A stretch of DNA of 63,711 nt, the filler included, from Candidatus Babelota bacterium (GTDB lineage: Bacteria; JAGOBX01), in NCBI GenBank assembly GCA_017999075.1. It is 9 parts of 9 records of this genome, joined end to end, with 100 filler letters (N's around TTAATTAATTAA, not from the genome) between each part and the next. Parts side by side here need not be neighbours in the genome. Positions count along the whole stretch, not along the records: positions 1 to 7,047 come from JAGOBX010000180.1; 8 more parts are not named here. One strand, 5' to 3'. A model generated the notes under the pieces. That model was not told the origin of the DNA. It saw only the letters and a program-made list of their open reading frames with translations, and did no database searches. The stretch's first letter is position 1. Each line of letters begins with the position of its first letter. Shown piece after piece: positions 1-49,763 of the stretch. The position numbers and the translations under genes were made by a program.

Positions 1-526
1 TTATATTTCCGTCTTTTACAAGATACATCCATTGACTTGATGTCGAAATATAAAGCTTGTTATCTTTAAGTACTAATCCATTAATAATATTGATTTTATT
101 TGAAACATTTATTTTGTCTATATATTGCCCTGTTATTGAATATTGGTAAATTTAATTTTCAATGTTTAACGCATATACAAAATTTTGAGTTTCATCAACA
201 ATAAAATTCAGAAATGTTTCCGCAGGAAGAACTATGGGCAATGATACTAAAACTGAATCGTTTTCATCAAATCTTTTGATCTTTTTATTTATAGAATCAA
301 GTATAAAAATTTTACCTGAATTAGTTATAAAAAAATCAGAGGGCCCATAATTTTTATCAAATGATTTCCTGAAACCCACACTGGTTTCATTTTCTCCCCA
401 TTCAGCACTAAACAATTCTGAAAAAGTAAAATTTATACTTGCACAAACAGGAGAGCTTTGAATTATTATTAATACTAATAGCGCATTAATTAGTTTTAAA
501 AACCTTTGAAACTTTATTTTTTGCAC
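1..526 (-). pseudogene. Secreted NHL/beta-propeller-like protein interrupted by one in-frame TAA (154-152); the frame stays open to the window start
   Basis: Signal-peptide-like N-terminus; 'GPSDFFITNSGKIFILDSINKKIKRFD' resembles an NHL blade. After the TAA the same frame reads IYQYSITGQYIDKINVSNKINIINGLVLKDNKLYISTSSQWMYLVKDGNI with no stop. Could be a sequencing error rather than a true pseudogene. Confidence 0.55.
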
Positions 527-822
527 TATGCCAAATAATACATATAATTTTTTAGAATATATAAACTAAATTGTATCCTTAATATATAAAAAAATCAATT
601 AGTTTGTTATTATTTTTCAAAAAATAAATAATTAAATAAGTTTCGTATAATTTCAAATAATCCTTGAATTTTTTAGTGTAAAAAGTAAACTTTATTAAAT
701 TATAAAATAGTTTTTTTGAAAAGTGTGTTAATATATAATATTAAACTGAACCTAAATTAATTTAATAATTTTAACAGCGGTTTGGGATTTGATAATTCAA
801 AATGTAATTATTCACTAAAGTT

Positions 823-1590
823 ATGTCTAAAATTGTATCAGTTCATTCTTTTCGCGGAGGTACAGGCAAATCAAATACTACAGCTAATATTGCAGCCATA
901 TTAGCTCAAAACAACTATAGGATTGGTGTAATTGACACTGATATACAATCACCTGGAATTCATATTATTTTCGGTTTAAACGATAGCAGAATAAAATTTT
1001 CATTAAACGATTTTTTATGGGGAAAATGCGGAATTGAACAGGCTGCATATGAAGTTTCTGAGAATTTAGACATTAATTCAAGCGGAAAACTTTTTTTAAT
1101 ACCTTCAAGCTTTAAAACCGGAGACATCGCAAGAATGCTTCATGAAGGATATGATGTAAATCTGCTGAATGAAGGGTTTCAAAATTTAATAAAAGCCTTA
1201 ACTCTTGATTTTCTTTTAATTGACACGCATCCAGGACTAAACGAAGAAACATTGTTATCAATAGCATTATCAGACTTTCTATTAATAATTTTAAGACCTG
1301 ATAATCAGGATTATCAGGGAACCGGAATAACAGTAGAAGTCGCACGCCAGCTTGAAACTCCAAGAATGCAACTTTTAATAAATAAAACCCCATCTTTTTT
1401 TTCAGAAAATGAAATTATAAAAAAAGTTGAATCAACTTATAATTGCCCGGTTGCAGGAATAATTCCGCATTCTGATGATTTAATGGCATTGGCAAGCGGA
1501 GGAATATTTTCATTAAAATATCCCCAACATAAAATCACGCAGATTTATAAAAAAATTGCTGAAATAATAATAAAAAATAATGTTGAATAA
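823..1590 (+). CDS. MinD/ParA-family ATPase (MinD-like subfamily, no obvious C-terminal membrane-targeting helix)
   Basis: Deviant Walker A 'SFRGGTGKS' (Arg at the signature-Lys position), 'IDTDIQSPG', Walker B 'LLIDTHPG', 'LLINK'. Confidence 0.9.
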   Translation: MSKIVSVHSFRGGTGKSNTTANIAAILAQNNYRIGVIDTDIQSPGIHIIFGLNDSRIKFSLNDFLWGKCGIEQAAYEVSENLDINSSGKLFLIPSSFKTGDIARMLHEGYDVNLLNEGFQNLIKALTLDFLLIDTHPGLNEETLLSIALSDFLLIILRPDNQDYQGTGITVEVARQLETPRMQLLINKTPSFFSENEIIKKVESTYNCPVAGIIPHSDDLMALASGGIFSLKYPQHKITQIYKKIAEIIIKNNVE

Positions 1591-2611
1591 AAAAAAAATT
1601 TTTTTATACACTATCACAGCAGGATTTATTTACGGAATTTTTAATTATATTTCAGGAAAAATAAATCTTCCGGGATGCGCATTTATCGAGTTAAGACCGC
1701 AAGTAGCTCTGCCGATGTTTATCGGAGCATATTTAGGTCCTCTGCCTGGTTTTATAACAGGTCTAATCGGAGACAGAATAGGTTATGCTTTTCAAGGTTT
1801 AAATATATATTATGCTTGGAACTGGAGTATCGGTAATGGTTTTATAGGTATGTTTCCAGGAGTTTTAAAATGGTTTAAAATCAAAGAAATAAAATCCATA
1901 CAGGATTATTCCATACTATTAATTTTAATTGTAAGTGCAAGTTTTTTCCCTATTGTTTTTGCAAGCGTTATTGATATTATTGTAAAAAATCTGGGTTTTA
2001 TAAAAATCATTTATACCTTAATACTGCCTGCTTTTATTACTGACGCTGTATTCGGTCTTATTATCGTGCCGTTAATGCTTATGACTGTTAATAGAATACG
2101 ATTCACTATAGGAATAAGAAATATGCTTATGGTAACATATCTTCTTCTTTTCTCAGTTTTAACAACATATTCTGTCAGCGCAATTTCAATGTGGAATAAT
2201 ACCGGACAAAAAGCTTTTATGTATAATGATATTTATAATATAGGAATTTTGTCTTTAATTATTTTATTAACAGGCCTCTCAATTTCAGTCATAATCGTAA
2301 AAAAAATAATATCACCGGTAATGTATCTTACAAAATCAGCAAAAGAAATTGCAGAAGGCAATTATAATAATATTTCTTATTCTAATATAAAAATAAATCC
2401 TTCTGACGAGCTGAGTTGTCTCACTGCTACATTTAATAAAATGGCAAATGAAATATATATGAGAGAAGAACAATTAAAAAAAGAAGTACGGGAACTAAAA
2501 ATTGAAATAGACAAAAACAAACAAAATACAGAAGTTTCAAAAATTGTTGATACTGATTATTTCCGTGATTTAAAAAATAAAGTCAAAGTATTAAGGGGGA
2601 AAAATGATTGA
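1580..2611 (+). CDS. ECF transporter S-component-like membrane domain fused to HAMP and a C-terminal coiled-coil tail
   Basis: N-terminal hydrophobic helices with 'ELRPQVALPMFIGAYLGPLPGFITGLIGD...WNWSIGNGFIG' (S-component-like), two further TM helices, HAMP 'ISPVMYLTKSAKEIAEGNY...DELSCLTATFNKMA', tail 'REEQLKKEVRELKIEIDK...DTDYFRDLK'. Overlaps the upstream gene. Confidence 0.8.
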   Translation: MLNKKKIFLYTITAGFIYGIFNYISGKINLPGCAFIELRPQVALPMFIGAYLGPLPGFITGLIGDRIGYAFQGLNIYYAWNWSIGNGFIGMFPGVLKWFKIKEIKSIQDYSILLILIVSASFFPIVFASVIDIIVKNLGFIKIIYTLILPAFITDAVFGLIIVPLMLMTVNRIRFTIGIRNMLMVTYLLLFSVLTTYSVSAISMWNNTGQKAFMYNDIYNIGILSLIILLTGLSISVIIVKKIISPVMYLTKSAKEIAEGNYNNISYSNIKINPSDELSCLTATFNKMANEIYMREEQLKKEVRELKIEIDKNKQNTEVSKIVDTDYFRDLKNKVKVLRGKND

Positions 2612-5249
2612 ACGTCCTCAACCTAAATTAACGGGCATTTTAAATAAATTAATTAAAAACCAGGTTCATGACACAGAGCATTCAAATGATTTCTTCAAAG
2701 ACTCAAATTCTAAAATTATCTCTCTCGGGGTCCCTTTAATTAAATGCGACAATGGTAATTTCTGCGTTGACATCAGTAAAATTGATTTTTTTTCAGGAAT
2801 TCCAGAATTAACCAGAACGCTTTTAAGCAGATTCAATGAAGAGTATCAAAAAAATAAGTTCGACATAATAATACGCCAGCCTGTAAACTCAGAAGTCAAT
2901 CCAGAATTATTTAAGCTCGGAATAACTAACATCAGCATAACTGCAAGAAGTAAAACAGCAAAAGAGCTGTTTGTTAACTCAAATATTTTTCAGAATCATT
3001 TACTAAATATCTTTTATGCATTACAAACATCAAAATGGGGAGGAGTCTTATTCCCCGATTATTACAGCCGCCGTAATTCCAGTGTAGAAAACTTTTTAAA
3101 AAAAAATGAAAATTCCGATTTTTCTTCAAATACAGAAATCCCTGCATTACTTTATCATTTTTATATTGATGGATATAATAGTCAGCAAGAAAAAAAATAT
3201 ATTATATTAACAGAATTTGATTATACTGATAAATTTTTAAGTTTGACAATAGAAAATTCATTCGATTCACGGCTGAATCTGAAAAGAATATCTCATCGAA
3301 CTATGGACAGCGATTACAGTCAATCGTCTTTTATAGACATTGATAAAATCAGCAATCAAATCTACAAGGCGGTTTATCTTGAAGCTCAAAATCAAAAAAA
3401 TGAATATTTCGAAACTCCGTTTATTCAGCCGGAATTATTTAATTTGTTAATTTCTTCCGGAATGCAAATCTTGTCTCTCATTAAATTCAGATGGAATATT
3501 GAAACTTCCTCAAAAATAATTCTTGAACCTAAAAATAATTTTATAATTTTATTAGCAAAAATAATACGCCTGCTCCACGATCCTGATATAATTAAAATTT
3601 TATATTCAAACAATCTTATTGAAGTGTCAGCAAATGGAAATAAAATTTACTTTGATGTCTCCAGAGGAGGGACCTGTTTAAATATATGTTTTGAAGAAGA
3701 GCGTCCTAAAACATCTGCATCTTCTTTTTTGGATAAAATGCCTGCATTAAAAAAAACCGTAATTAATTCAAATATATCTATTGAAAATTTCCGAATTCTT
3801 CTTATACATCACTCAACTTCCGAAATATTAGGATTTATTAACGCGCTTAAAGAATTAAAATGCGGAGCGGTTTCAACACTTTTTATTAAATATAAAGGAG
3901 TTATGCCAGATAATTATATTGATGTACTGTTTTCTTTTCCTGATGAAATTTTTAAATTTTATTCTCTCCAGAGAATCGAATCTTTCAATTCTGTTGAAGT
4001 AAAGTATGTTTTATCAAATCAATATTCTCCAATAAAAGAATTTAATCAATTAAACAATCAGCTCCTCAACGAAAAACCCGATTTTTTCAAAGCAATGATA
4101 ATGACAGCAGCACATATATTTTTCAGAGAACTTATAATTGCTAAAGCTAATAACCAAAAACTTTTAATTATTGAAGACGGAGGATATCTTGCACCTTTAT
4201 TAAATCAATATTGCCTTGAAAATAAAAAATTAAATGAATCTATTGAATTATTAGGAGTAAAAAATTTTTTCTTGTTTAAAGATATCTCTAATTATTGTTC
4301 AGAATCCAATAATACTCTTCTCTATGAATTTCTCGAACATCATAATTATTGCGGCAGTATTGAACATACAAGAAACGGTTTTGATAATCTCCAAAAAATC
4401 AACAATACTTTCAATAAACTTTCATTTCCGGCTCTGTCTATTGCAGTTTCAAAATTAAAAAACACCGAAGAAGCCCGTGAATGCGCATCTGCCATACTTA
4501 ATGCATTTGAAACTATTCTGCATAGTTCAGGTTTAATTCTATCAGCAAGAAACATAGCTGTTTTAGGATGCCGAGGAAACATAGGCAGAAATCTGTTTCT
4601 TCAATTATCGCACCGTAAAACAAAAGGAATTCTGGCAGGTATAGACATATCCGTCGATCCTGATGAATTTTCTTTTTTAGATTCAGGAACCGAATTACGC
4701 ATTGCTGAAAGAAATTCTTTAGATGTTCTGGAAGATGAGTTGTTTAATAATATTGACACTTTTATTGGAGTAACCAGTAAGTCAATAATCAAAAAAAATC
4801 ATATAGAAAAACTTTTATTAACAGGTTCTAAACCAATTTTATTTTTTATAAGCGGTTCAACAAAAACATTAGAATTTGAAGACTTATCAGATTGGATTCA
4901 AACACTTCAGAACTCTCAAAATCAAAATATAGGAGATATGAAAGTAAAAATTAATATTACTCATATTAAGGATCCTCAAACAGGCCTGATTCAAGGAAAT
5001 AGGGTAAGAATTATTTTTGATAAAAAAACCGAATGCGGACTGGATTACAAAGATCTTTATTTATTAGGAGATTTAATGCCTCTTAATTTTCTTTATTACG
5101 GAGTACCTACTGAAACAATGGATTTAATTTTTGATCAATTACTCAAATTAACACTTGGATTTATTAACAAAATAAATACAGATAACAAATTACCTATTAA
5201 ATTACTGGCTATTGACAGAGATATTGATGAAAATGCCGATTTACTGTAG
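2604..5249 (+). CDS. 881-aa protein: unknown N-terminal ~390 aa plus divergent S-adenosylhomocysteine-hydrolase-like (AdoHcyase/NAD-binding) region
   Basis: SAHH-like motifs in canonical order: HHSTSE, IEDGGY, GSIEHTRNG, FPALSIAVSKLK..EE, Rossmann AVLGCRGNIG, LLGDLMPLNF..GVPTETMD. Overlaps the upstream gene. Confidence 0.65.
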   Translation: MIERPQPKLTGILNKLIKNQVHDTEHSNDFFKDSNSKIISLGVPLIKCDNGNFCVDISKIDFFSGIPELTRTLLSRFNEEYQKNKFDIIIRQPVNSEVNPELFKLGITNISITARSKTAKELFVNSNIFQNHLLNIFYALQTSKWGGVLFPDYYSRRNSSVENFLKKNENSDFSSNTEIPALLYHFYIDGYNSQQEKKYIILTEFDYTDKFLSLTIENSFDSRLNLKRISHRTMDSDYSQSSFIDIDKISNQIYKAVYLEAQNQKNEYFETPFIQPELFNLLISSGMQILSLIKFRWNIETSSKIILEPKNNFIILLAKIIRLLHDPDIIKILYSNNLIEVSANGNKIYFDVSRGGTCLNICFEEERPKTSASSFLDKMPALKKTVINSNISIENFRILLIHHSTSEILGFINALKELKCGAVSTLFIKYKGVMPDNYIDVLFSFPDEIFKFYSLQRIESFNSVEVKYVLSNQYSPIKEFNQLNNQLLNEKPDFFKAMIMTAAHIFFRELIIAKANNQKLLIIEDGGYLAPLLNQYCLENKKLNESIELLGVKNFFLFKDISNYCSESNNTLLYEFLEHHNYCGSIEHTRNGFDNLQKINNTFNKLSFPALSIAVSKLKNTEEARECASAILNAFETILHSSGLILSARNIAVLGCRGNIGRNLFLQLSHRKTKGILAGIDISVDPDEFSFLDSGTELRIAERNSLDVLEDELFNNIDTFIGVTSKSIIKKNHIEKLLLTGSKPILFFISGSTKTLEFEDLSDWIQTLQNSQNQNIGDMKVKINITHIKDPQTGLIQGNRVRIIFDKKTECGLDYKDLYLLGDLMPLNFLYYGVPTETMDLIFDQLLKLTLGFINKINTDNKLPIKLLAIDRDIDENADLL

Positions 5250-5250
5250 T

Positions 5251-5295
5251 AAAAAAAAATGTTGCCAAATGGCAGTTATGCCATTTGGCAACATT
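5251..5295 (-). terminator. Intrinsic terminator-like hairpin between convergent genes (17-bp perfect stem, U-tract on the minus strand)
   Basis: aatgttgccaaatggca-gtta-tgccatttggcaacatt (5258-5295) preceded by an A-run at 5251-5259. Confidence 0.8.
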
Positions 5296-5306
5296 CCCAT
5301 AGCATA

Positions 5307-5843
5307 TTATAATGTTTTTAAAAAATCTTTAATCCAAATCTTTTCAGCCTTAAATAATGCTATAGGACGCGTTGCAAGTCCTAATTTATTGACAGGACAT
5401 TTTTCTTTTTTTAAATAATCGATCAAATTGCCATAGCCTGTTATAAGTTCATCAAGTTTTTTTTCGTATTCTTTAAGGCATTCTTCACTTTCTTTTTTAT
5501 TCAAAACATTATAATTTGCTATTGCTAAATCAATGCGCCAAGTCAATTTTTCAGGTTCAGACAGAATTTCTTTAATCTTTTCCTTTAATCTTTTTTTCCC
5601 TTCACCGGTAATTTTATAAATTTTTTGAGTGACATTTTTTTTCGTTAACTTAATCTCGCTCTTTATCATTTTTTCTTTTTCCATTTTATTCAGCAATTTA
5701 TAAATTGAAGACTGTGAAATTTCCGTCCAGTAATTCATGCTTCTCTGATAAATCTCCTGTTCAATCTGATAAGCGTGCATGGATCTTTCATTCAATAATC
5801 CGAGAAGAGCAGTTTCCTTGTTTGAAATAATATTTTTTTTCAT
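5307..5843 (-). CDS. PadR-family transcriptional regulator
   Basis: 'ALLGLLNERSMHAYQI...SQSSIYKLLNKMEKEKMI...KIYKITGEGK' wHTH pattern; GGAGG RBS upstream. Confidence 0.92.
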   Translation of the reverse strand: MKKNIISNKETALLGLLNERSMHAYQIEQEIYQRSMNYWTEISQSSIYKLLNKMEKEKMIKSEIKLTKKNVTQKIYKITGEGKKRLKEKIKEILSEPEKLTWRIDLAIANYNVLNKKESEECLKEYEKKLDELITGYGNLIDYLKKEKCPVNKLGLATRPIALFKAEKIWIKDFLKTL

Positions 5844-5878
5844 TTTTATATTCCTCCTTTATAATATTGTATTAAAAC

Positions 5879-5915
5879 TATATTGTCATGATACAATATA
5901 AAATATCTTTGTCAA
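5879..5915 (-). promoter_or_regulatory. Sigma70-type promoter of padR (TTGACA-16-TATCAT) overlapped by palindrome TATATTGT-N6-ACAATATA (candidate operator)
   Basis: tgtcaa at 5910-5915, atgata at 5888-5893, inverted repeat at 5879-5900. Confidence 0.6.
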
Positions 5916-6049
5916 GTTTTTTTATTAATAAAAATATTAAAAATTTTTGTTGTAAATTTTATCGGAAAAATTAAAATTATTCTTTTTAATAATAAATTTG
6001 AAATATAAAAATATTAAAAATACGGATAATACAAAATATATTATAAGAG

Positions 6050-7047
6050 GTGGGCATTTTGGAAAATTCAATTGAATATAATTTCGAACAAATAGAAAAA
6101 AAATGGCAGAAAAAATGGGAAGAATCCGGATTGTTTAAAGTTAATCTTAGCGATTCATCAAAACCTAAATATTATTGCCTCACAATGTTTCCTTATCCTT
6201 CTGGAACTCTTCATGTCGGTCACGGCAGAAATTATATTTTAGGAGACGCTGTTGTCCGTTATATGATTATGAACGGATATAATGTTCTGTCACCTATGGG
6301 TTGGGATTCTTTCGGACTTCCTGCAGAAAATGCAGCCATTAAAGCTAATATAAGCCCTGTTGAATATACAATGGGCAATATTTCCAAAATGAAAGAACAA
6401 TTTTCAAGATGGGGGATTGGTTATGACTGGTCAAGAGAAATAGCAACATGCACTCCTGATTATTACAAATGGACTCAATGGGTATTTTTAAAATTATATG
6501 AAAAAGGGCTTGCTTATAAAAAAGAAGCTCCTGTAAACTGGTGCCCTTCCTGTAATACCACGCTCGCAAACGAAGAAGTAGTTGACGGTGGATGCGAACG
6601 ATGCGGAACCGAAGTCGAAAAAAAAGATTTGAAACAATGGTTTTTTAAAATCACAGAATATGCTCAGAAACTTCTTGACGATCTTAATTTATTGACTGAA
6701 TGGCCTGAAAAAGTGGTTACAATGCAGAGAAACTGGATAGGAAGATCTGAAGGTGCCATAGTAAATTTTAAATTAAGCGAAACCGGAGAAATTCTTCCAT
6801 GTTACACAACAAGGCCTGACACTTTGTTCGGAGTTACTTTCATGTCAATTGCCCCAGAACATCCTGTAATTTCAAAATTGATAGTAAATAACGATAAAAA
6901 AGATGAAATTTTAAAATTTATTGAAGAAGTAAAAAAACAAAGTTTCATCGACAGAACTTCAGACACTGCTGAAAAAAAAGGAGTATTTACTGGGAAATAT
7001 GGTATAAATCCTTTAAACAACGAAAAAGTTCCTCTTTGGATAGCAAA
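6050..7047 (+). CDS. leuS: Leucine--tRNA ligase, N-terminal part (truncated by contig end)
   Basis: '[13 protein letters not shown]' (HIGH motif), '[13 protein letters not shown]', 'WCPSC..LANEEV', '[11 protein letters not shown]', 'TTRPDTLFG'. Confidence 0.97.
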
Positions 7048-7147
7048 NNNNNNNNNNNNNNNNNNNNNNNNNNNNNNNNNNNNNNNNNNNNTTAATTAAT
7101 TAANNNNNNNNNNNNNNNNNNNNNNNNNNNNNNNNNNNNNNNNNNNN
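7048..7147. other. Artificial contig linker
   Basis: N44-TTAATTAATTAA-N44, stops in all six frames. Confidence 0.98.
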
Positions 7148-14183: not shown

Positions 14184-14283
14184 NNNNNNNNNNNNNNNNN
14201 NNNNNNNNNNNNNNNNNNNNNNNNNNNTTAATTAATTAANNNNNNNNNNNNNNNNNNNNNNNNNNNNNNNNNNNNNNNNNNNN
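14184..14283. other. Artificial contig linker
   Basis: N44-TTAATTAATTAA-N44. Confidence 0.98.
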
Positions 14284-21317: not shown

Positions 21318-21417
21318 NNNNNNNNNNNNNNNNNNNNNNNNNNNNNNNNNNNNNNNNNNNNTTAATTAATTAANNNNNNNNNNNNNNNNNNNNNNNNNNN
21401 NNNNNNNNNNNNNNNNN
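21318..21417. other. Artificial contig linker
   Basis: N44-TTAATTAATTAA-N44. Confidence 0.98.
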
Positions 21418-24400
21418 CAGTTAATCCTTCTATAAGCAAATCATTTATATTTACCGGTTCTGAAGGTTTAGCCATTATTGCAACAGCTTTTTTACCAGAC
21501 AAAGTTTCTCTTACTACAATCGTATCTCCTTCTTCTACTCTAATCTTATTTAAAGCTGGAAATGTAAATCTATCAATTTGAAAATAACCTCTATAAACGC
21601 CGGTATGAATTCCTGATTCGCTAACTTGAATTAAAAACGAATCTGATCTTGGAAGCCCATTCGGCTGGAAAGCTTCAAGCACAACTGAAAAATTATCAGC
21701 AAGCAATGGATTCGCATCTTTGCCATTTACTTCAAAATTAACATATTCTCCCAATATAGGAGAGTACCCTGAACCTTGAGGTCCGGAAAAATCCGATTTA
21801 ATAAATTTTATAGAATTTATAAAATTAGGTTCACTATAATTTAAAACTTCCCTCTGAACAAATCTTACAGAAGGATTTTTAAAATAATTATATCCGGCAT
21901 TAACATAAGGCGTAAAAGTTATTATAGAACCATATGTGCTTTCAAGCAAATCAAGAGTTTCGTTTGATGATACATCAAGTTTCATAACTCCTCTGTAAAT
22001 TTTAGTATTCTTACCTGTTTCAGAACATAAAATATGTATGGTATCATTTCCGTTGGTTGCCTGCAAAATCACGGTATCTTCAATAAATTGAGAACTCGAA
22101 TAATTTAAATCTGAAGTATCTCCTTCAATTATCGATATAAACAATTGTTCATTCAATACAAATTTTCCTAAAATCAAATCTGAATAATTATTATCTCTAT
22201 AAAAATTAATCGAATTTATCACAGACGGCGATTTCGGTTCAGGATTGAATACCAGAACAGTATCCGACAAATTTTGATTAATATGCCATCTTGCAATCAA
22301 TGTATCTCCTGCGTCAATATTAATCAATGGGGGTATTGCAAATTTATTCGTCGGCTGAAAATTGGTGGATGATAATTGCGCTATACCCTGGTAAAATCCC
22401 GAAGTTTTTTCAGTTTCATACAATATTACAGATACAGAATCAGTTGGAATTATTGACCCTTTTGGAATTTTATATAAATAAACAAGTGTCGTATCTCTCA
22501 ATAAAGTAGTACCAATACCTCCAAAAGCTTGAATATATAACGTATCTCCAAATGTCACATTGCCGCTTAAATTCTGTAACAAATCAGGAGAACCGTTAAA
22601 ATCCTGTTTAAAATCCAAAAATGTCAGGTATGACGGTTCTTCTTCTATTGCCACCTGTGCAGTATCCCAATATGCAATATTATTATAATTTGAAATTACC
22701 CTGACAAGTATAACGTTCCCTTCGCTATGTTTTAATAATTGCTGATAAGTATCACTCACATTGCTTAATTGAAGCCAATTGCGGTATTTCCCGCTATTTT
22801 TTGAGGTTTCATATAAATTTACAGAAACCTGACCCAATATATTATTCCTAAAAATTGTATTTTCGCTATAAAATGCAGGACTGTCAAAATAATTCAATGG
22901 AAATGCCTGGAATATTGATTTTGACAATGTATAAACATAAACAAAATTATCTGAAGTATTATCTACAAGATCCGGATTCCCATCCAATCCATTTAGTTCA
23001 ATATAAATTTTTTCATTAGTAAGAACTTTACTGCCGGAATAATTTTTAAGTAATTCATCAAATTCACTATTCATAAACTTTACAGAATTTATTTCTGTAG
23101 GATTCGCTTTATTTACTATATAAAAACTTATTTCCTTTTCTCCTATAACAATATCCGATTTTATATATACGGAATTACCATAATCTACTCCAAGTGTTTT
23201 TGATGTGCTTGAACTCTGAAGTCCAAGATTAGCATATCCCCTATAAATTCCTGCTGTCGGCGCAATTTCAGTTAAAACTATTGTTACAGTGTCATTACTA
23301 TAGTTCGCATTCAATGTAACTGCAGTAGTATCATTTATAATATTATTCCCGAAATCATCGCTTCGCGCTTCTATATAAATAACCATTTCTCTCGGAACAT
23401 ATTTTCCAAGTATGCTGTTAGAATATGTTATATCTCTAAAAACATTCAAACTACGCAACTGAACAGGAGACATCGGCTTTGCCATATATGTAAAATCTCT
23501 AAATGAAGAAGCGCTGGTTACAAATGTATCGCTTACTTCAATCGTATCTCCAGGATTACCTACTATTAAATTATTATTTTCCTGTGACCAATACCATATA
23601 CGCGGCTGAGGTTCGGGAGAATCAACCCTGTATATTTCACTTCCAACAGCTGTTTCACGAAGTGTAATTTCAATATAAGTATCGTTTCCTGTAGAACCTG
23701 CCAAATTACTTGATTTCACATAAACAGTTATTGTATCTCTCAAAATAGGATTAGATAAAGAACCTATAATCTGCGGATATAAAAAATCCTCCATTTTAAG
23801 ATTTTTTCCCGATAATGGCTCTATATACTTATCATCTTGAAACAAAGTTATATCTTTTACCTGCGGGCTTCTGTATTGAGCTACTGTCAAAGTTTTTGTC
23901 CCATAATCGTTATCTGTAGTCGGCTGCATAACATTTTGATAATATACAGGACAATTTGAAGCTGATATATTCGGATATATCAGTATTGTATCCCCGCGTT
24001 TTCCATAAAGTAAATTCAAATCAGGAGATGATATAGATGACAGATAAGGTATATTTAACATTGTTCTATATATATTAGAATTATTCGATGTTTCAGTCAT
24101 TTCTACAGAAACTTTATATGGAGGCTGAGAAAGATCAGTTCTATTTTCCAAAGTTATTAAAAAAGTATCAACAATTTCATCATTCAAATATGGAATGGTG
24201 TCATTATAAAAAGATCCTTCAAAATCCCAGGCTTCGGCTTCAATATAAAAATAGTTGAACGGTTCCTCGTAAGACACTTCTGATATGTTACCGCCTGAAA
24301 AAGTTGAATTCCTGTATACTCTGATTTGTTTCAAGCGTGTCGGCGCAATTTCTATGGCAGCTCTTGTTTTATAAACAACCGGATTACGCTGCGGATCTAT

Positions 24401-27400
24401 ACTCGGTTCTATTGCAATAATTTCAACAGTGTCTCCAGGATAAACATCAAGAGAATCTATTCTTTTAACAGTAACATTTCTTAAATCCCTAACTTCCATT
24501 TGTCCTCGAAATATGCCTGAATGTATCTCGGTTTCCCATAAGATCAAATCAAGATTATATGTATCATTTGTAGATTGAACCCTTACTTTCACAGTGTCTG
24601 AAAGAAGATTGCTGCTTGTTAATTTATCAGCTTGAGCTTCAATATAGATATATTTTCCTGCAGACTCGTCTCCCCATTTTATAGGAGATAATTTAGTGGT
24701 GGAATAATACGGATCAGTTTTTAAGGTAATACTGTAAATATAATCTGGTGTACGCATAGTGGCAGTTTGTACTGAATCTGAAATAATTTCATTATATTTT
24801 TTCCCTATACCGGCTGCTCCCCAGTATGAAGTATCATAAGGTTCAAGATATACAAAATCATTCTGATTATTTTTTAACCAGTTTTCTATATTATTCTTTG
24901 TATGCGATAATAAAACTCTGCCCACATATACTCCAGTATGTTTTCCTGTTTCTGTTAAATTGACTATTAACTGAAATTCACCTGTTCCTGAATCATTCTT
25001 TTCTCCGTTCGAAGATGTCAGTAAAACAGCAACCTGATCTTCTGTATAAGGAGAAATATCATTTCCCATAAATCTTATATTTAAATAATCTCCTCTTTGC
25101 ACCTGAATCTGTTTATTATAAGGTATCTGAAAACCCGGTTCTGTAAACTCAAGTTTATTCATTGTCGCAGGTAAAACCGGATTTGCCACAACAAGAGTTG
25201 TTAAAATTGACGTATCCGTTTTAGAAATCACATATATTGTATCTCCAAAATTCACTCCCAATTCATCCAGAGTATCATTTGTTCTTGTTTTAATATTAAC
25301 CTCTCCCCGAAATTTGGAAGAAGATTTTTCTGTTTCATAAACACTAACTTCTATTCTATTATTTATTTCCTGTGTCCAATCAGAAATATTTCCAGAAACC
25401 AAAATTACTTCAGACATATCAGGAGAGAGAGAATTAATATCAGTTGCAGTTAATTCAATATATAAAACATCATTCAATCCAACAGGTTCTGTTCTGTCTG
25501 TTAAATAAGTATAGTTACTTTTTACTCTGACCGCGATTATATCTGCCGGCTGTATAGTTTCGTTTTCAATAAATATAATATCGTACATGTTGGTTTCTGT
25601 ATCAGAAATTGTATATTCGTCAGCTATAAATTGCCATTTCGTTCCAAATACATCTCCCCATATCCATCCTCTTCTTCCGGGTAATCCGCTGAAATTAAGC
25701 GGATTTGGAGCCCCTGTCCTATATCCTGCATATTCAGATACTACAATCGTATCTCCTTTAGCAAAAGCGTTTATATATTGTAATCCCGCGTCTGTAAAAT
25801 TATTTATTTTTACCCAATTTCTATATCTTCCTGAATTCAAACTTGTTTCCCTTAAAGTTAATGGTATTCCTGCCGTATCTTTATTAGATGTTACATAAAC
25901 TATAAAAGTATCAGCGATAAGCGGATTAGCGTCTAATCCGTTAGCTTCAATATATACAATTTGATTGGCAAGAGTTTTATCTGTTAAAAATTCATTATAT
26001 AAAGAATTCATGAATTTCATACTTGAAACTATAACAGGACGTTTGTTATAAGTCGTATGTATCTGCCAGTTATGCGAATCCGGAGCAACTGCAGAATAAG
26101 CTTTGATTATATTATTATATCCTGCTCTCAATAAATTTCCAGACTGGTTGGTGGACAGCATTGTCAAAGTTATAAAACCCTGAAATTCACCAGAACCTCT
26201 TCCGGTCTCTATCAAATCAACATATATCTGTTCGTTATTATTAAGATTTTTCATTATTACGCGTGTAGTATCAACTGTAAAACTATTCTGATCATTTGCA
26301 ATTACTTCAATATAAATTTTATCATCAGGCAAAATTTCAGTTAAATTCTGGTCAACAGCGCTTACATAATCAGATTCTGTTATCCTTAACGATATTATTT
26401 CATTGGCAGGCGGAGTGATAGGTTGAAGTCCCGCAGTTATCAGAACACTGTCAATTTCCGAATAAGATTTTGGTGCTCCTAAAGGCGCATTTACAAATGT
26501 CTGATCATTATCTTTCCATATAATAAATAATGTATCCCCATTATTTATTGACATTATTTTAGGAACAGCATCAGGTCTTTTTACATCAGTAGGAGATTGT
26601 CCTAAATTAACCCTCCCTCTGAATTCTCCGGTAGTCATTCCTGTTTCTTTAAGCGTCAAAACTAAAGAATCAGAGACTATTGTATCGCCGGCCAGAACTT
26701 TATATAATATAACATTTACTTCATCAGCTAAAACAGGCGAACCTATATCTCCAAAAAGCATTATATACAAATTATCTCCATAAGTAGCATAATCTCCCCA
26801 GTTTGTATTATAATCATCTGCTCTGTAATTTAAAAAAGTAATATAATTTAAAATTTGATTGGTCGCTATTTGTATTGTATCACTTTTAAATGAAGTTGTA
26901 TCAAACTCAGTCCCGTTATTATATAAATACGCTAAAACAATCAGTGTATCGCCTTTATAAGCTTTTATAAATCTTTGATTAGTATCATTATAATCTCTTA
27001 TATATGCAGTTCCCCGGTAACGCCCTGAATTTTTTTCAGTTTCATTAATTCTTAATTTTAAATATCCTCTCGAATTATTAACTTGAAATTGACCAGTATC
27101 TTTAACAATATTTATTGGTTGATTATAATCTACGCTATAAATATATATATCCATATATTCTGCAAGCTGAGGATTAGCATCTTCACCGTTTACTTCAATA
27201 TTTAAAGCTTGACTGCGGGAAATTTTTCCTGTTGTTTGACTCAAATTATCTTCAAATAATTCATCTTTAAAATAAACATTATTCAAGCGAAGCGGAGAAT
27301 GATTTGACACAACTCTCATAACTTTAGGATAACTGCTTACAGGTTTATTGGTATCTGAAATATTGTCTGCACAGTATACGCTTATTGTATCACCGAGAAA

Positions 27401-28438
27401 CACTCCCAGTTCGTCAAGCGTATCGTTTGTAGAAGGCTTCAATTTCATGCTTCCCCTGTAAACCCCTGAATTTCCGCCTAATTCATATAATGTAATTATT
27501 ATTCTGTCGCCAGATCTTAAATTTTCAATCACAAATGGAGTAGTATCTCTGACAGCATTATTTCCAACATCTCCACGGGCTTCAATATATAAATTCGCAT
27601 CATCTGCTATTACTCCCAGATCAGATACAGCCTGGCTATAACCAGAATTAATGAATACATTTAAATTAAAAAATGAAATTGGAGAGATCGGCGCTCCCAT
27701 TCTTGTAACGTCAATCGGATAAGTATCGAAATACGGATATACTGATTTATATGGTGTTACTGAAATTGTATCTCCCTGACCTGCATATAAAAAATTACTG
27801 TTATCAGCGCTGAAATAATAAATTTTAGGGACAGGTTCACTCCCTGAAACTCTGTAAATTTCACTTCCGACTTCTGTTTCAGTAAGCATAATCTGGATGC
27901 TGTCACTATTGGCTCCATTTAAATTTCTATGTAAAACTACCATAAACGTATCAACTAAAATACTGGCAGAATTCCTGCCGACTAATTGTATATAAATATT
28001 ATCTTCCATTAACAAATTCAACCCAGCTAACTCACTGGTGTAGCTGTTATCAGTAAAAAAACGTATACTTCTTATCTGTGTGGGCTGACGATATTCAGAA
28101 ACAATCAATTCTATCGGGGATCTAAATGCAGTATCTTCAACATTAGCAGATATAATTATTGTATCTCCGCGTGAAGATTCAAGTTCTATTGTCTGTAATG
28201 CCTGCTCATTAACTATATAAGGGTTTTCAAGCCAATTTCTATATATATTTGTATTTTTCCCTGTTTCAATTAAAGTTATAGGAACAGTGCCTCCTAAACC
28301 ATTTAACCCAATTCTTGAAGTAATCAATAATTCAACTGTATCCTCCAATTCATCATTTGCATAAAGAGTAGTATCAGTTAAAGTCCCTGCTAAATCATAA
28401 GCTTCAACTTCAAAATACATATACCTGTAATTTGGTTC
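21418..28438 (-). CDS. Internal fragment (>2300 aa, open at both ends) of a giant repeat protein, probably surface-exposed; 17 beta-rich modules of ~130-150 aa
   Basis: One frame spans the whole contig. Recurring module 'P..I..L.F....Y...IYIE..G.D.N....DT..V...D.I.V.L.ET...SG.YRG...GDTI.V'. Confidence 0.9.
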
Positions 28439-28538
28439 NNNNNNNNNNNNNNNNNNNNNNNNNNNNNNNNNNNNNNNNNNNNTTAATTAATTAANNNNNN
28501 NNNNNNNNNNNNNNNNNNNNNNNNNNNNNNNNNNNNNN
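28439..28538. other. Artificial contig linker
   Basis: N44-TTAATTAATTAA-N44. Confidence 0.98.
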
Positions 28539-29508: not shown

Positions 29509-30963
29509 ATGCGAAGATTATACGAAATAATAATATCCGGCAAATTATACATATATTTTTTTTTATGTTTTAATCTAATAATTGTTTCTTGCTGCACCAC
29601 AAAAAAAAATATAGGGACAAAAGTTTTTTTTCAAGAAGATTCTAAACAAAAAATTGAACGAATATTGACTTCTGACAGATTAAATCAAACAAATTGCGGG
29701 ATTTATGCGGTATCTTTAAAAACCGGAAAAATAATATTTGATTATAACTCTGATAAATTATTTATTCCTGCATCCACATTAAAATTAGTCACTTCTGTAT
29801 CTGCATTAAAAATTTTAAAACCTGAATACAGGTTCAAAACAGAATTTTTAACTGATGAATTTATAGATAAAAAAACCATTTCTAATATTTATTTGAAAGG
29901 TTATGGCAATCCTGAATTCAAATATTCTGATTTGGAGAAAATTGTAATTTCACTGTCAAAAAAAATAAGTAAAATTCAAGGTAATATAATAATTGATAAT
30001 ACATATTTTGATAAAGTTCATTACGGAAAAGGATGGATGTGGGATGATCTGGCGCTTCCGTTCAGCGCTGCTGTTTCAGCATTGAATATTGAAGGCAACT
30101 GCATAGAAGTTTCGGTTGCCGCTAATGATTCGGATATAATAGATATATCGATTTTTCCTGAAAACGGTTATATAAAAAAAATATGTGATATAAAAGATGG
30201 GATTAACAATATAAAAATTAATAGATTGGAAAAAGAGTATAATGAAATTTTTGAATTTACCGGCACATTTCCCTTAAATGAAACAAAGGTAATGTATTGC
30301 AGTGTTATAAAACCGGAATATTTTTTTGCTTCAAATTTTAAACATTTATTACAGAAACATAATATTGAATTTTCCGGGGATATTATAGAAAAGAAAATTC
30401 CAGATCAGGCTGTTTTACTTGAAAATCATTTTTCAGAATCATTAACTCTGATAATACATAATTTTTTAAAATATAGTGATAATCTTGCAGGAGAATGCTT
30501 ATTAAAAACAATAGGAGCTGAATCTAATCAAACTCAAGGGAGCAATTATAATGGAATTTTAACTGTTAAAAATTTTATAAGCAGTATAGGAATGGATTCT
30601 GATTCATATAGAATTGAAGATGGTTCAGGGTTGTCAAGATATAGTTTGGTATCGCCAAAATTTATGGTGAAAATATTAGATTATGCTTACAGAGATTATA
30701 CAATATATTCTGAATTATCGGCAGGGTTACCGGTTTCAGGAATAGATGGATCATTAGTGAATCGTTTGAAAACTGAAAAATCGGAACGTAGGATTAGAGC
30801 CAAAACAGGATATATGTCTGGGATAAGATGTCTATCAGGATACGTATTTACAACATCAAATGATATAGTAGCTGTTTCAATAATGATGAATGGGATAGTT
30901 GGTTTAACAAAACCGCTGGCTGATATTCAAGATGAAATTTTAAATGTTATAATTGAAAATTAA
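29509..30963 (+). CDS. dacB: D-alanyl-D-alanine carboxypeptidase/endopeptidase (PBP4, peptidase S13)
   Basis: 'PASTLK' (SxxK), 'GWMWDD', 'SDN', 'DGSGLSR', 'AKTG'. Confidence 0.95.
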   Translation: MRRLYEIIISGKLYIYFFLCFNLIIVSCCTTKKNIGTKVFFQEDSKQKIERILTSDRLNQTNCGIYAVSLKTGKIIFDYNSDKLFIPASTLKLVTSVSALKILKPEYRFKTEFLTDEFIDKKTISNIYLKGYGNPEFKYSDLEKIVISLSKKISKIQGNIIIDNTYFDKVHYGKGWMWDDLALPFSAAVSALNIEGNCIEVSVAANDSDIIDISIFPENGYIKKICDIKDGINNIKINRLEKEYNEIFEFTGTFPLNETKVMYCSVIKPEYFFASNFKHLLQKHNIEFSGDIIEKKIPDQAVLLENHFSESLTLIIHNFLKYSDNLAGECLLKTIGAESNQTQGSNYNGILTVKNFISSIGMDSDSYRIEDGSGLSRYSLVSPKFMVKILDYAYRDYTIYSELSAGLPVSGIDGSLVNRLKTEKSERRIRAKTGYMSGIRCLSGYVFTTSNDIVAVSIMMNGIVGLTKPLADIQDEILNVIIEN

Positions 30964-30973
30964 TTATTTTTTA

Positions 30974-31021
30974 TTTCACACTTTCCAATTTTCCAAATTT
31001 GGAAAGTTGGAAAGTGTGAAA
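30974..31021. repeat. 48-nt near-perfect loopless palindrome (REP-like or hairpin) between dacB and acs
   Basis: tttcacactttccaattttccaaa | tttggaaagttggaaagtgtgaaa; one mismatch, a G-U pair on the + strand. Confidence 0.85.
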
Positions 31022-31042
31022 AGTATTAGGAAGGAATGTATT

Positions 31043-33436
31043 ATGCAAAAAGAAATATTGACTATTACAAACAATATTGCAGAAATTGAGAAAATTCATT
31101 CGTTTGTTCAAGTTTTCGGTAAAAATATAAACTTGTCTAATCGATGCATTAATTCTACAAATCTTGCCATTGAAGAAATCGTGTCCAATGTTATAACTTA
31201 TGGTTATACTGATTCTGAACAGCATATGATTACTATATCTTTATTTGAAGAAGAGGTTGATAAGAAAAAAAGAGTTAATATTGATCTGGAAGATGATGCG
31301 AAAAAATTTAATCCTTTTGATGTTGAATATAATCCCCCAAAGAATTTTACATTAGATCAGATTGAAGATATATCATTAGGAATTCATTTTATAAGAATTT
31401 TGGTTGATGGTTATAATTATGAATATAGATCTGGGAAAAATCATTTAAAGATATTTATTATTGATGAACCGAATAAAAAAACCATTACATCGGTTTTAAC
31501 AGAAACACGTGTTTTTCAGCCGCCTGCAGAATTACAGGCAACAGCAAGAATTAATTCTATAGAGAAATATAAGGAAATTTATGAATATTCAATAAAATAT
31601 CCTGAAAAATTCTGGGCGGAAAAAGCTGAAGAACTGCATTGGTTTAAAAAATGGGATAAAGTTTTAGAATCGGATTTTGCTGAAGGTAAACATAAATGGT
31701 TTATAAACGGTCGAATTAATATTACTGATAATTGTCTTGATAGATTTTTATCAACTTCTGTTAAAGATAAAACAGCGATATTATGGGAGGGAGATAACCC
31801 GGGTGAAACAAAAAAAATAACCTATTTTCAACTTCACAATGAAGTTTGCAGGTTTTCAAATGTTTTAAAAAAACATGGAGTAAAAAAAGGAGACAGAGTT
31901 ACAATATATTTGCCTATGATACCAGAACTTCCGGTAGTAATGCTTGCGTGTGCTAGAATCGGAGCAATTCACAGTATAGTATTCGGCGGATTCAGCGCTG
32001 AATCTCTTAAAGACAGGATGATTGACTGCGGTTCAAAAGTTTTAATTTGCGCTGACGGTTATTATCGCGCTGGAAAAGTTATAAAAAGTAAAGAGAATGC
32101 TGATAAAGCGGTTGAACATCTTGATTTTGTTAACACTGTTATAGTTGTAAGAAGAACCTGTCAAAAAATAAATTTGAAATCAGGACGTGATTTTTTGTAT
32201 GATGAAGAAATGAATTCAAATGATATAACTGACACGTGCGAACCTGAAGTAATGGAATCAAGTGATCCATTATTTATTTTATACACAAGCAGCAGCACCG
32301 GAAAACCCAAAGGAGTTATGCATTGTCATGCGGGATATCTGTTATATGTAAATCAGACATTTAAAAATGTGTTTGATATAAAAGATAATGATATATATTG
32401 GTGTACGGCTGATATCGGTTGGATTACAGGGCATAGTTATATAATTTATGGTCCTTTATCTAATGCTGCAACAATAGTTATGTATGAAGGAGCTCCGAAT
32501 TATCCTAACCCTGGCAGGTTTTGGGATATAGTCGAAAAATACAGAGTTACAATATTTTATACTGCTCCTACAGCCATACGGGCTTTAATGAAAGAAGGCG
32601 ACGAGTGGCCTCGAAAATATGATTTGAATTCTCTGCGTCTTCTTGGAACAGTAGGTGAGCCTATAAATCCTGAAGCTTGGATGTGGTATTATGAAGTTAT
32701 AGGAAAAGGTAAATGTCCTGTTATAGATACCTGGTGGCAGACAGAAACTGGGGGTATTCTGATAGCTCCTCTTCCAGGAGCTGTTTCTGTGAAACCTGGT
32801 TCAGCCACTTTACCTATGTTCGGAATAAAACCTGAAGTTATAAAAGAAAATATGTCTAAAGCTGCTGTAAATGAAGGAGGCTGGCTTGTTATAAGGCACC
32901 CGTGGCCAGGATTGATGGCTGGAGTTTATGGCGATGAAGAACGGTTCAAGAAAACTTATTTTTCGCAGTTTTATGGAGTATATACAACAGGAGACAGTGC
33001 TCGAACGGATGAAGACGGATATTTCTGGTTAATGGGAAGAATAGATGATGTTATAAATGTATCAGGACACAGGCTTGGAACAGCGGAAATAGAAAGCGCT
33101 TTTGTATCTCATCATGCAGTTGCAGAATCCGCTGTAGTAGGAATACAACACGATATTAAGGGACAGGGGATATATGCTTTTATAATTTTGAAATCCGGTG
33201 TTGAAAAAAATAATGAACTTATGATTGAACTTAAAAACCATATTCGCTCGCAGATAGGTCCTATAGCTACTCCAGATAAAATTCAGTTTACAGAAGGATT
33301 ACCTAAAACAAGATCAGGAAAAATTATGCGCCGGATATTAACTAAAATAGCATCAGGAGATGTTTCTAATTTAGGAGACACAACTACTCTTACAGATCCG
33401 TCTGTAATTGAAGAATTGATAAAAAACAGGATATAA
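31043..33436 (+). CDS. acs: Acetyl-CoA synthetase (AMP-forming) with an N-terminal RsbW-like HATPase domain
   Basis: N-terminus 'LAIEEIVSNVITYGY...EDDAKKFNPF...LGIHFIR'; Acs motifs 'HSIVFGGFS', 'YTSSSTGKPKG', 'WCTADIGWITGH', 'DTWWQTETG', 'PKTRSGKIMRR'. ATG at 31043 follows a purine-rich RBS. Confidence 0.93.
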   Translation: MQKEILTITNNIAEIEKIHSFVQVFGKNINLSNRCINSTNLAIEEIVSNVITYGYTDSEQHMITISLFEEEVDKKKRVNIDLEDDAKKFNPFDVEYNPPKNFTLDQIEDISLGIHFIRILVDGYNYEYRSGKNHLKIFIIDEPNKKTITSVLTETRVFQPPAELQATARINSIEKYKEIYEYSIKYPEKFWAEKAEELHWFKKWDKVLESDFAEGKHKWFINGRINITDNCLDRFLSTSVKDKTAILWEGDNPGETKKITYFQLHNEVCRFSNVLKKHGVKKGDRVTIYLPMIPELPVVMLACARIGAIHSIVFGGFSAESLKDRMIDCGSKVLICADGYYRAGKVIKSKENADKAVEHLDFVNTVIVVRRTCQKINLKSGRDFLYDEEMNSNDITDTCEPEVMESSDPLFILYTSSSTGKPKGVMHCHAGYLLYVNQTFKNVFDIKDNDIYWCTADIGWITGHSYIIYGPLSNAATIVMYEGAPNYPNPGRFWDIVEKYRVTIFYTAPTAIRALMKEGDEWPRKYDLNSLRLLGTVGEPINPEAWMWYYEVIGKGKCPVIDTWWQTETGGILIAPLPGAVSVKPGSATLPMFGIKPEVIKENMSKAAVNEGGWLVIRHPWPGLMAGVYGDEERFKKTYFSQFYGVYTTGDSARTDEDGYFWLMGRIDDVINVSGHRLGTAEIESAFVSHHAVAESAVVGIQHDIKGQGIYAFIILKSGVEKNNELMIELKNHIRSQIGPIATPDKIQFTEGLPKTRSGKIMRRILTKIASGDVSNLGDTTTLTDPSVIEELIKNRI

Positions 33437-35548: not shown

Positions 35549-35648
35549 NNNNNNNNNNNNNNNNNNNNNNNNNNNNNNNNNNNNNNNNNNNNTTAATTAA
35601 TTAANNNNNNNNNNNNNNNNNNNNNNNNNNNNNNNNNNNNNNNNNNNN
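35549..35648. other. Artificial contig linker
   Basis: N44-TTAATTAATTAA-N44. Confidence 0.98.
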
Positions 35649-42628: not shown

Positions 42629-42728
42629 NNNNNNNNNNNNNNNNNNNNNNNNNNNNNNNNNNNNNNNNNNNNTTAATTAATTAANNNNNNNNNNNNNNNN
42701 NNNNNNNNNNNNNNNNNNNNNNNNNNNN
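42629..42728. other. Artificial contig linker
   Basis: N44-TTAATTAATTAA-N44. Confidence 0.98.
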
Positions 42729-49663: not shown

Positions 49664-49763
49664 NNNNNNNNNNNNNNNNNNNNNNNNNNNNNNNNNNNNN
49701 NNNNNNNTTAATTAATTAANNNNNNNNNNNNNNNNNNNNNNNNNNNNNNNNNNNNNNNNNNNN
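49664..49763. other. Artificial contig linker
   Basis: N44-TTAATTAATTAA-N44. Confidence 0.98.

Follow-up and report, generated by a model that had tools for sequence, protein, structure and literature searches.

A conserved three-gene cassette of a ParA-clade ATPase, an ECF-S/HAMP membrane sensor and a predicted SAHH-fold enzyme

ParA ATPases of the ConB2 assemblage are marked by an arginine in place of the Walker A lysine and by a PG dipeptide following the sensor-1 DxD motif, as described in the main text of a recent preprint (Li, Burroughs and Aravind, bioRxiv 10.64898/2026.10.19.760177). The same main text describes the APE system, in which a sensor whose C-terminus forms a long, charged helix is predicted to contact ParA and the third part is a variable enzyme (bioRxiv 10.64898/2026.10.19.760177). 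Here we report on a locus that invites comparison with these systems. It lies in a window of 63,711 nucleotides, the whole stretch of DNA that was analyzed, from Candidatus Babelota bacterium (GenBank assembly GCA_017999075.1). The locus consists of three same-strand genes with overlapping ends, which encode a MinD/ParA-type ATPase, a membrane protein composed of an ECF S-component-like domain, a HAMP domain and a helical tail (hereafter the sensor), and an 881-aa protein resembling S-adenosylhomocysteine hydrolase (SAHH; hereafter the enzyme).

An earlier interpretation, made from the sequence alone, had proposed that the three genes form a signalling module. The open reading frames (ORFs) were found at exactly the coordinates claimed, and we conclude that the module is real, conserved and undescribed. 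The function that we favor, with slightly less than an even chance of being right, is that of a conserved, translationally coupled operon in which the sensor controls the enzyme, presumably a nucleoside or sugar oxidoreductase, by means of a MinD/ParA-type ATPase switch. As a whole, the sequence-only reading was partly supported.

The cassette and its three proteins

When 185,579 species were scanned, each represented by one genome, 23 loci with a relative of the enzyme emerged. At 17 of these loci the sensor gene (ECF-S plus HAMP) is located just upstream of the enzyme gene, and the order ATPase, sensor, enzyme was found at 14 of the 15 loci with enough upstream DNA. The ordered loci come from Elusimicrobia, Desulfobacterota, Sumerlaeota and Lentisphaerae, so that the co-occurrence in other genomes, which had been set beforehand as a test of the sequence-only reading, was confirmed with the same gene order in at least four phyla. 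Identities in the related loci amount to 54-78% for the ATPase, 34-68% for the sensor and 32-55% for the enzyme. In all five whole genomes studied, the ATPase (at E<=1e-20) and the sensor tail occur exactly once each, side by side within the cassette. The flanks vary between loci and mostly contain transporters and housekeeping genes; at one locus (L005) AbiEii-like AAA_21 and Uma2 genes were found upstream, and at another (L014) nucleoside-recognition (Gate) and TRAP transporter genes reside near the cassette. Since the three overlapping genes are kept together across several phyla, they look like one sensor-controlled small-molecule module. The hosts are uncultured wastewater and sediment bacteria, and the module is thus reachable by heterologous work only.

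The enzyme gene is frequently accompanied by genes for further enzymes. In 11 of the 17 cassettes the next gene downstream is one for Cupin_5 (DUF985), and in many cases the two genes overlap by 4 nt; L002 and L010 are two loci with this cupin. In four cassettes a gene for a Zn-dependent dehydrogenase of the MDR family is inserted between sensor and enzyme, directly upstream of the latter. Neither of them was detected in two cassettes (2/17), and the window contigs likewise lack both: a tblastn search over all nine contigs disclosed no Cupin_5, no MDR-type alcohol dehydrogenase (ADH) and no further copy of any cassette gene. The enzyme homologues of Binatia are directly preceded by an ADH-like gene. 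Moreover, fusion proteins exist in which ADH_N is joined to the whole enzyme (P0051) or the SAHH-like module to Cupin_5 and DUF952 (P0115), while other fusions combine this module with FHA or EF-hand domains. In P0072, P0073, P0111 and P0137 the SAHH-like module is present without the rest of the enzyme, the settings being behind an FHA domain, ahead of a pair of EF-hands and within a 1854-aa M4-peptidase protein. At two Binatia loci a protein of about 790-800 aa with an amidase domain is encoded after the enzyme homologue (L016, 8401-10797; L020, 8408-10780), and the enzyme frames of L020 and L021 continue without a stop over a long distance upstream (1149 and 1373 aa), pointing to fusions.

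The product of the first gene had been named a MinD-like ATPase, an assignment that held for the family. The protein scored above the Pfam cut-offs for ParA, AAA_31 and CbiA, the full-length match being that to the NUBPL/Mrp-type 'ParA' model. With the MinD model TIGR01968 it gave 69.1 bits (cut-off 212.9) and with the archaeal MinD model TIGR01969 85.6 bits (cut-off 201.75). The nearest solved sequences are those of archaeal MinD-1 (1hyq, E 2.7e-17) and Aquifex MinD (4v03), followed by P. furiosus MinD (1g3q), FleN and Soj. Its segment RGGTGKS is invariant in all 12 orthologues and aligns with KGGTGKT of 1hyq. Residues D38, T39, D40, S43, P44 and G45 are invariant as well, as are the P-loop lysine, the DxD motif and the Walker B aspartate. 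The orthologue alignment revealed no CxxC or other metal-ligand motif and a single invariant cysteine. Judged by these sequence features, the ATPase is not MinD proper and is an Arg-for-Lys variant of the ParA clade.

In the sensor, the ECF-S-like domain is followed by two more hydrophobic helices, the HAMP domain and the helical tail. The match to PF07155 reached 35 bits (cut-off 26.7) and extended over profile positions 20-170 of 172, whereas the RibU equivalog model gave 35.9 bits, which is under its cut-off of 99. HAMP was matched by PF00672 with 22.1 bits (E 1.9e-4), just short of the cut-off of 25; for 23 of 29 relatives a precomputed PF00672 match exists. All 29 relatives found with the membrane part share the whole HAMP-tail architecture. 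EcfT or EcfA genes were located beside none of the 17 cassettes.

The tail profile recovered, at E<=1e-17, many proteins of about 235 aa with REC as the sole Pfam domain, together with HisKA-REC, HAMP-cNMP-binding and HAMP-CHASE3 proteins. Since the same tail is attached to such different proteins, we regard it as a portable output module. It is rare: in a sample of 201 Desulfobacterota genomes it was present in two, one of which was the centre genome, and no further pairs were gained. Furthermore, 80 metagenome loci with REC-tail proteins were fetched by patterns that fell in the REC domain. For this reason 79 of them turned out to be plain response regulators and L040 alone was informative. 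Both the tail and an Arg-type ATPase were found in L040 and in none of the others (1/1 versus 0/79). At 3521-5470 this locus encodes a HisKA-REC-tail protein and, 9 nt on, the Arg-type ATPase (338 bits, RGGTGKS); a gene for a pyridoxal phosphate-dependent enzyme lies upstream of the HisKA-REC-tail gene. The response regulator upstream in L002 possesses two REC domains, and the tail is absent from it.

It had been suggested that the helical tail engages the ATPase. We folded a complex of two ATPase chains with ATP/Mg and two tails and compared it with three controls. The score was 0.48, while the best of the controls gave 0.00; the runs shared at least 84% of contacts, and the predicted local distance difference test (pLDDT) of the partner was at least 67. 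Of 80 solved complexes, 58 attained the mark applied here, as did 2 of 110 mismatched pairs. The tail as a conserved portable module was upheld, and for its engagement with the ATPase the complex fold provides weak support.

The Pfam and NCBIfam scan of the 881-aa enzyme gave no family at E<=0.1. A PDB match obtained by plain sequence search (E 0.41) was dismissed as chance. By exhaustive search of 1.84 billion representatives, 546 relatives were identified at E<=1e-3, of which 143 reached E<=1e-30; a word-indexed search gave 13 proteins. A model calculated from an alignment of 63 sequences reached a pLDDT of 90.5 and a predicted TM-score (pTM) of 0.87. In the Foldseek search with this model, all matches listed were SAHH entries, with a best E of 4.3e-14 and a TM by target of 0.67. 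VIA-align superimposed model range 370-877 on T. maritima SAHH (3x2f) with Z 29.5 and a root-mean-square deviation of 2.8 A over 359 residues; the best 50 matches were all SAHH and together covered model residues 350-877, mostly 354-877. Profile searches gave the same family: with the enzyme family profile the top PDB match was SAHH 7r39 (E 0.0088, three collinear segments), and hhalign against four canonical SAHH from cassette-bearing genomes yielded a probability of 94.4% (E 8.6e-8, 410 columns). All three families of the sequence-only reading, the SAHH likeness included, were thereby corroborated.

A number of SAHH equivalents are kept in the enzyme, namely H403/T405/E407, D525, E587/T589, K619, E623 (for Asp), GxxGxxG, D681 and N828. 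Within the enzyme family, each of them is either invariant or conserved to 90% or more. Their counterparts in SAHH include the NAD site, the catalytic pair of lysine and acid, and substrate residues. A canonical SAHH gene is present elsewhere in five of five cassette genomes tested, where a PF05221 scan reported the canonical genes only. Consequently, the 881-aa protein is not the housekeeping SAHH. It forms a separate family with the SAHH fold and probably performs NAD-dependent 3'-oxidation in the manner of SAHH, though on a different substrate.

Ahead of the SAHH-like module, the model contains a detached helix (residues 9-21) and an alpha/beta domain. The helix is flanked by linkers with pLDDT below 50 (residues 1-7 and 21-26). 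The helix motif precedes the enzyme core in all 17 cassette-linked homologues and in none of the six homologues without ATPase or sensor neighbors. As this helix tracks the ATPase, the ATPase may bind both the sensor tail and the N-terminal helix of the enzyme. Residues 1-353 modelled alone reached pLDDT 89.3. When the PDB was searched with this N-terminal half by Foldseek, nothing matched at E<=0.001; in VIA-align, the best of 48,161 chains had a Z of 4.9 and none had Z>=5, and the ESM Atlas contained no usable match. Several weak Foldseek matches to Pol-beta-type nucleotidyltransferases (E 0.12-0.7, TM <=0.14) were dropped, because the best VIA-align Z of 4.9 fell on unrelated small proteins.

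Proposed mechanism and alternative explanations

In the mechanism that we propose, a ligand would bind within the ECF-S-like membrane domain, and the signal would be passed through HAMP to the tail. The tail would then bind the ATP-dependent dimer of the ATPase and set its state. By analogy with the recruitment of MinC by MinD, the ATPase may capture the N-terminal helix of the enzyme, which would thereby be recruited to or activated at the membrane. Like SAHH, the enzyme would use tightly bound NAD for oxidation at the 3'-hydroxyl, but its ribosyl (nucleoside-like) substrate would be a different one. The keto product might then, in the majority of other genomes, be handed over to the coupled Cff1-type cupin or to the Zn-dependent dehydrogenase.

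Several observations weigh against this mechanism. One locus (L003) keeps sensor and enzyme and carries a radical-SAM/SPASM gene (1531-2622) in the ATPase position. Six of the 23 loci contain an enzyme homologue with neither ATPase nor sensor. These homologues are the most distant ones (28-33% identity; Binatia, Planctomycetota, Leptospiraceae and others), and their existence indicates that the enzyme is in principle independent of both partners. Conversely, L040 harbors tail and ATPase and shows no SAHH-like gene in the remaining 660 bases of its contig, so that the ATPase may have another, general target; moreover, the pairing of a REC-tail protein with the ATPase was seen at this one locus. 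The complex score of 0.48 falls into a weak band, as mark-reaching scores of at most 0.60 were given by 7 of the 80 solved complexes and by both of the mismatched pairs that passed. In the enzyme, the profile alignment revealed replacements at SAHH positions (H588, Y528, S752 and V834), and the C-terminal NAD-capping extension is absent, the enzyme ending at residue 436 of the 473-residue template. In view of the replaced substrate residues and the absent extension, NAD-dependent catalysis can only be inferred. Finally, CbiQ/EcfT genes occur elsewhere in four of the five cassette genomes (none was found in G005), and a transport role of the S-domain is therefore still conceivable.

Both sequence marks of ConB2 are borne by the ATPase (Arg in Walker A, PG after DxD), and the APE system, as far as the main text of the preprint describes it, follows the same three-part logic. 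The cassette might thus be a conflict system of ConB2 type, directed against phages or plasmids, in which the membrane protein would sense envelope perturbation, the ParA switch would fire and the SAHH-like protein would, as effector, deplete or convert a nucleoside cofactor (such as SAM/SAH, adenosine or NAD). The patchy and rare spread, with 23 loci among 185,579 species and the tail in 2 of 201 Desulfobacterota genomes, would suit such a function, as would the AbiEii-like AAA_21 and Uma2 genes upstream in L005. On the other hand, PADLOC contains no model for sensor or enzyme and gave a weak match (PDC-M28B) for the ATPase, and the flanks differ by locus and are mostly made up of transporters and housekeeping genes. 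The partners are metabolic (cupin, MDR dehydrogenase) and not nucleases, TIR or caspases, and none of the three proteins evolves fast, their conservation being good. In addition, the terms HAMP, ECF, SAHH and adenosylhomocystein- are not mentioned in the main text of the preprint (bioRxiv 10.64898/2026.10.19.760177). We therefore consider a conflict system unlikely.

The near full-length PF07155 match above cut-off, the CbiQ/EcfT genes elsewhere in four of five cassette genomes, the conserved enzymatic partners and the nucleoside-recognition (Gate) and TRAP transporter genes near L014 would all be expected if the cassette served salvage or catabolism coupled to uptake. The S-domain would then transport a vitamin- or nucleoside-like substrate to be metabolized by the enzyme, and ATPase and tail would be a mere tether of a metabolon. 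We regard this explanation as improbable, as HAMP and a portable tail that is common to response regulators are signalling hardware. Furthermore, neither EcfT nor EcfA accompanies any of the 17 cassettes, no CbiQ was found in G005, and the membrane domain was seen solely in the HAMP-tail architecture (29/29).

Some SIMIBI NTPases have maturation-type roles, among them HypB, CooC, those of the NifH type and Mrp/NBP35. The ATPase could in the same way load a cofactor or metal, delivered by the S-component, into the enzyme. This would agree with the full-length match to the NUBPL/Mrp-type 'ParA' model, with the radical-SAM/SPASM neighbor in L003 and with the linkage of PriB2-clade ParA genes to HypA, NifX and NifU that is reported in the main text of the preprint (bioRxiv 10.64898/2026.10.19.760177). 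However, the ATPase has no CxxC or metal-ligand motif and one invariant cysteine, NAD as the predicted cofactor of the enzyme needs no chaperone, and the same type of ATPase resides beside the HisKA-REC-tail protein of L040, where the enzyme is missing. A maturation factor is thus very improbable. A chance adjacency of three unrelated genes, for which nothing speaks beyond each family being common alone, was rejected on account of the same order at 14 of 15 loci in at least four phyla, the overlapping stop and start codons and the one-to-one single-copy occurrence in five of five genomes.

If the sensor controls the enzyme through the ATPase switch as proposed, the product might itself be a signal. 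Cupin_5 is the family of yeast Cff1p/YML079w, which is needed for the autoinducer-2 (AI-2) mimic 4-hydroxy-5-methylfuran-3(2H)-one (MHF), and bacterial and archaeal Cff1p homologues complement the yeast mutant, according to two reports (PMC8092285, PMC13267403). These reports describe MHF as a breakdown product of 4,5-dihydroxy-2,3-pentanedione (DPD) and a Cff1p pocket that fits nucleotide plus sugar (PMC8092285, PMC13267403). In the five cassette genomes a search for LuxS found none (0/5). Though the chance is slim, bacteria may use the cassette to make an AI-2 mimic, a furanone or DPD-like signal, by a ligand-gated route that is independent of LuxS. The enzyme with bound NAD would oxidize a nucleoside such as SAH, adenosine or a 5'-deoxy/thio-nucleoside at its 3'-OH, whereupon the 5' group and the base would be eliminated to give a keto-pentose. 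The latter would be turned into MHF by the Cff1-type cupin or, alternatively, reduced by the MDR dehydrogenase. An S-component-type receptor at the membrane would switch on production via the tail and the Arg-type MinD-like ATPase. This route is compatible with the evidence, because Cupin_5 is coupled or fused to the enzyme, LuxS was found in none of the five genomes and MHF can arise from DPD.

Should the proposed switch prove true, it would constitute a new signalling output, in which a short helical tail acts on a MinD-like ATPase and not on DNA or through a second messenger; this output would serve many response regulators without known output domain. The enzyme family, with about 550 representative proteins, is predicted by the model to combine an SAHH-type NAD site with substrate residues that have changed, both preceded by a domain whose fold matches none known. 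The genomic link between the enzyme and a Cff1-type cupin makes the open question of the MHF-forming substrate directly testable. If the furanone route were true, the enzyme family would supply the substrate of the 'MHF synthase', and its switch would be an output common to many response regulators.

The locus and the rest of the window

The coordinates of all features are compiled in Table 1. The first and second ORF overlap by 11 nt, the second and third by 8 nt. Within and near the upstream stretch, promoter-like sites were noted at 520-548 (10/12) and 604-632, whose frequency is no higher than in shuffles. An Rfam scan of 400-6100 with permissive filters gave no family at E<=1 and hence no riboswitch clue to the ligand of the sensor.

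Table 1. Features of the cassette and its surroundings (positions in the window)
Feature	Coordinates	Strand	Remarks
ATPase gene	823-1590	+	255 aa, first ORF of three
Deviant Walker A FRGGTGKS, residues 10-17	850..873	+	Arg for signature Lys, P-loop Lys kept
Switch/sensor-1 DTD, then SPG, residues 38-45	934..957	+	Orthologue alignment
Membrane sensor gene	1580-2611	+	343 aa, second ORF
ECF transporter S-component-like domain, residues 21-170	1640..2089	+	PF07155 (ECF-ribofla_trS)
HAMP domain, residues 239-292	2294..2455	+	PF00672
Conserved C-terminal helical tail, residues 282-343 (~60 aa)	2423..2608	+	Motif I-[TV]-x-x-D-Y-F, alignments
Enzyme gene	2604-5249	+	881 aa, third ORF
N-terminal detached helix, residues 9-21	2628..2666	+	Model; candidate ATPase-contact peptide
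N-terminal alpha/beta domain, residues 27-353	2682..3662	+	No detectable structural relative
Predicted SAHH-fold module, residues 354-877: substrate-binding and NAD-type Rossmann domains, GxxGxxG 655-661	3663..5234	+	
AT-rich upstream intergenic stretch, presumed promoter region of the operon	527..822	+	
Perfect 17-bp hairpin between the convergent operon and PadR gene	5258-5295	.	RNA folding

The strong hairpin that had been noticed behind the operon was recovered (-27.7 kcal/mol, z = -6.49), and none of 200 shuffles was of equal stability; a consensus scan widened it to a 20-pair stem (5255-5298). Its U-run is present on the minus strand only, and seen from the plus-strand operon it is a hairpin without U-tail. 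Thus, the hairpin reads foremost as a terminator of the convergent PadR gene (5307-5843).

The window comprises nine contigs whose lengths fall from 7047 to 6920 bases, joined by linkers of the form N44-TTAATTAATTAA-N44 about every 7.1 kb (7048-7147, 14184-14283, 21318-21417, 28439-28538, 35549-35648, 42629-42728, 49664-49763 and 56692-56791). Genes on separate segments are not physically linked, and ORFs touching a linker are cut. The cassette contig (bases 1-7047), which matches the 7,047-base contig on record for the protein, contains a small ORF, the three cassette genes, PadR and a truncated leucyl-tRNA synthetase. It was rightly stated that no ECF T or A genes, kinase or MinC/MinE lie on this contig; as the contig consists of bases 1-7047 only, the absence of further genes there means little.

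DNA nearly identical to 823-5249 was detected in metagenome runs from wastewater and activated sludge, with word shares of 0.96 and 0.54. Two runs contain at least half of the words, and the one with 0.96 of the sampled words possibly represents the source sample; among the sequencing runs listed for this region there was none of RNA. Elsewhere in the window, a 2352-aa ORF (21362-28420, minus strand) spans almost a whole contig and matches no Pfam family at E<=1e-5. In an odd fusion (30953-33436, plus strand), an anti-sigma-kinase-type HATPase_c_2 domain precedes an acetyl-CoA synthetase that is complete with ACAS_N, AMP-binding and AMP-binding_C. A 1306-aa protein (38595-42515, minus strand) has one PLD-like domain (residues 315-370) as its sole Pfam match. 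Another 881-aa ORF (45615-48260, plus strand) is of the histidine-kinase type (HATPase_c) and unrelated to the cassette enzyme, the same length being a coincidence.

Comparison with known systems

A literature search on ECF S-components, HAMP and MinD yielded no description of such a cassette, and among the matches listed for MinD-like ATPases, response regulators and output domains no pair of tail and ATPase was described. The claim that no pathway of this composition has been described was thus in agreement with our searches; in general terms, however, a scheme that links a sensor helix, ParA and an effector is predicted in the main text of the preprint.

With SAHH (AhcY; PF05221/PF00670) the predicted enzyme shares the two-domain fold (Z 29.5). 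The motifs are collinear and include MPxL, HxTxE (HxTxQ/E in SAHH), DGG, E-x-T-x-x-G, a pair of lysine and acid, the Rossmann GxxGxxG, which has an acidic residue behind strand 2, and the asparagine of LxNL. In contrast, the enzyme is missed by the Pfam models of SAHH, and the homology is visible from profile to profile only, with 17% identity aligned. In EETTTG the second Glu has given way to His588, in DDGGD the last Asp to Tyr528, in GHFD the His to Ser752 and in GHP the His to Val834. Invariants of the enzyme family that set it apart from SAHH are SGSTK 750-754, E757, D790, Y832 and E837. The enzyme furthermore has an insertion after residue 758, no C-terminal extension and a 350-residue N-terminal part without fold match.

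The ATPase belongs to the same fold family as MinD/ParA proteins (MinD-MinC/MinE, FleN/FlhG, ParA-ParB). The proposed ATP-dependent dimer, which would bind short partner helices and recruit an effector, would by analogy act in the mode of MinD. It differs by the arginine in place of the signature lysine of KGGxGK[ST] and by scores far under the MinD cut-offs; no MinC or MinE is located on the 7-kb contig, the partners here being the HAMP-tail sensor and the enzyme. Similarly, the sensor resembles ECF S components of the RibU type over nearly the full length of PF07155, and public records name its relatives 'ECF transporter S component'; unlike these, it is fused to two hydrophobic helices, HAMP and the tail and has no EcfT or EcfA neighbor at the cassette. 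The Cff1p cupin finds its counterpart in the Cupin_5 genes coupled to the enzyme in 11 of 17 cassettes and in the fusion P0115, whereas the window contigs contain none.

Compared by its marks alone, as the main text of the preprint defines them, the ATPase agrees with ConB2 in R11, D38-T39-D40 and S43-P44-G45; it differs in that PADLOC and the flank survey revealed no defence context around the cassette. As far as that main text goes, the APE system has in common with the cassette the three-part logic of sensor helix, ParA and effector. The sensor of the cassette, however, is an ECF-S/HAMP membrane protein and not an alpha-alpha toroid, and its third part is a predicted SAHH-fold enzyme with cupin or dehydrogenase partners.

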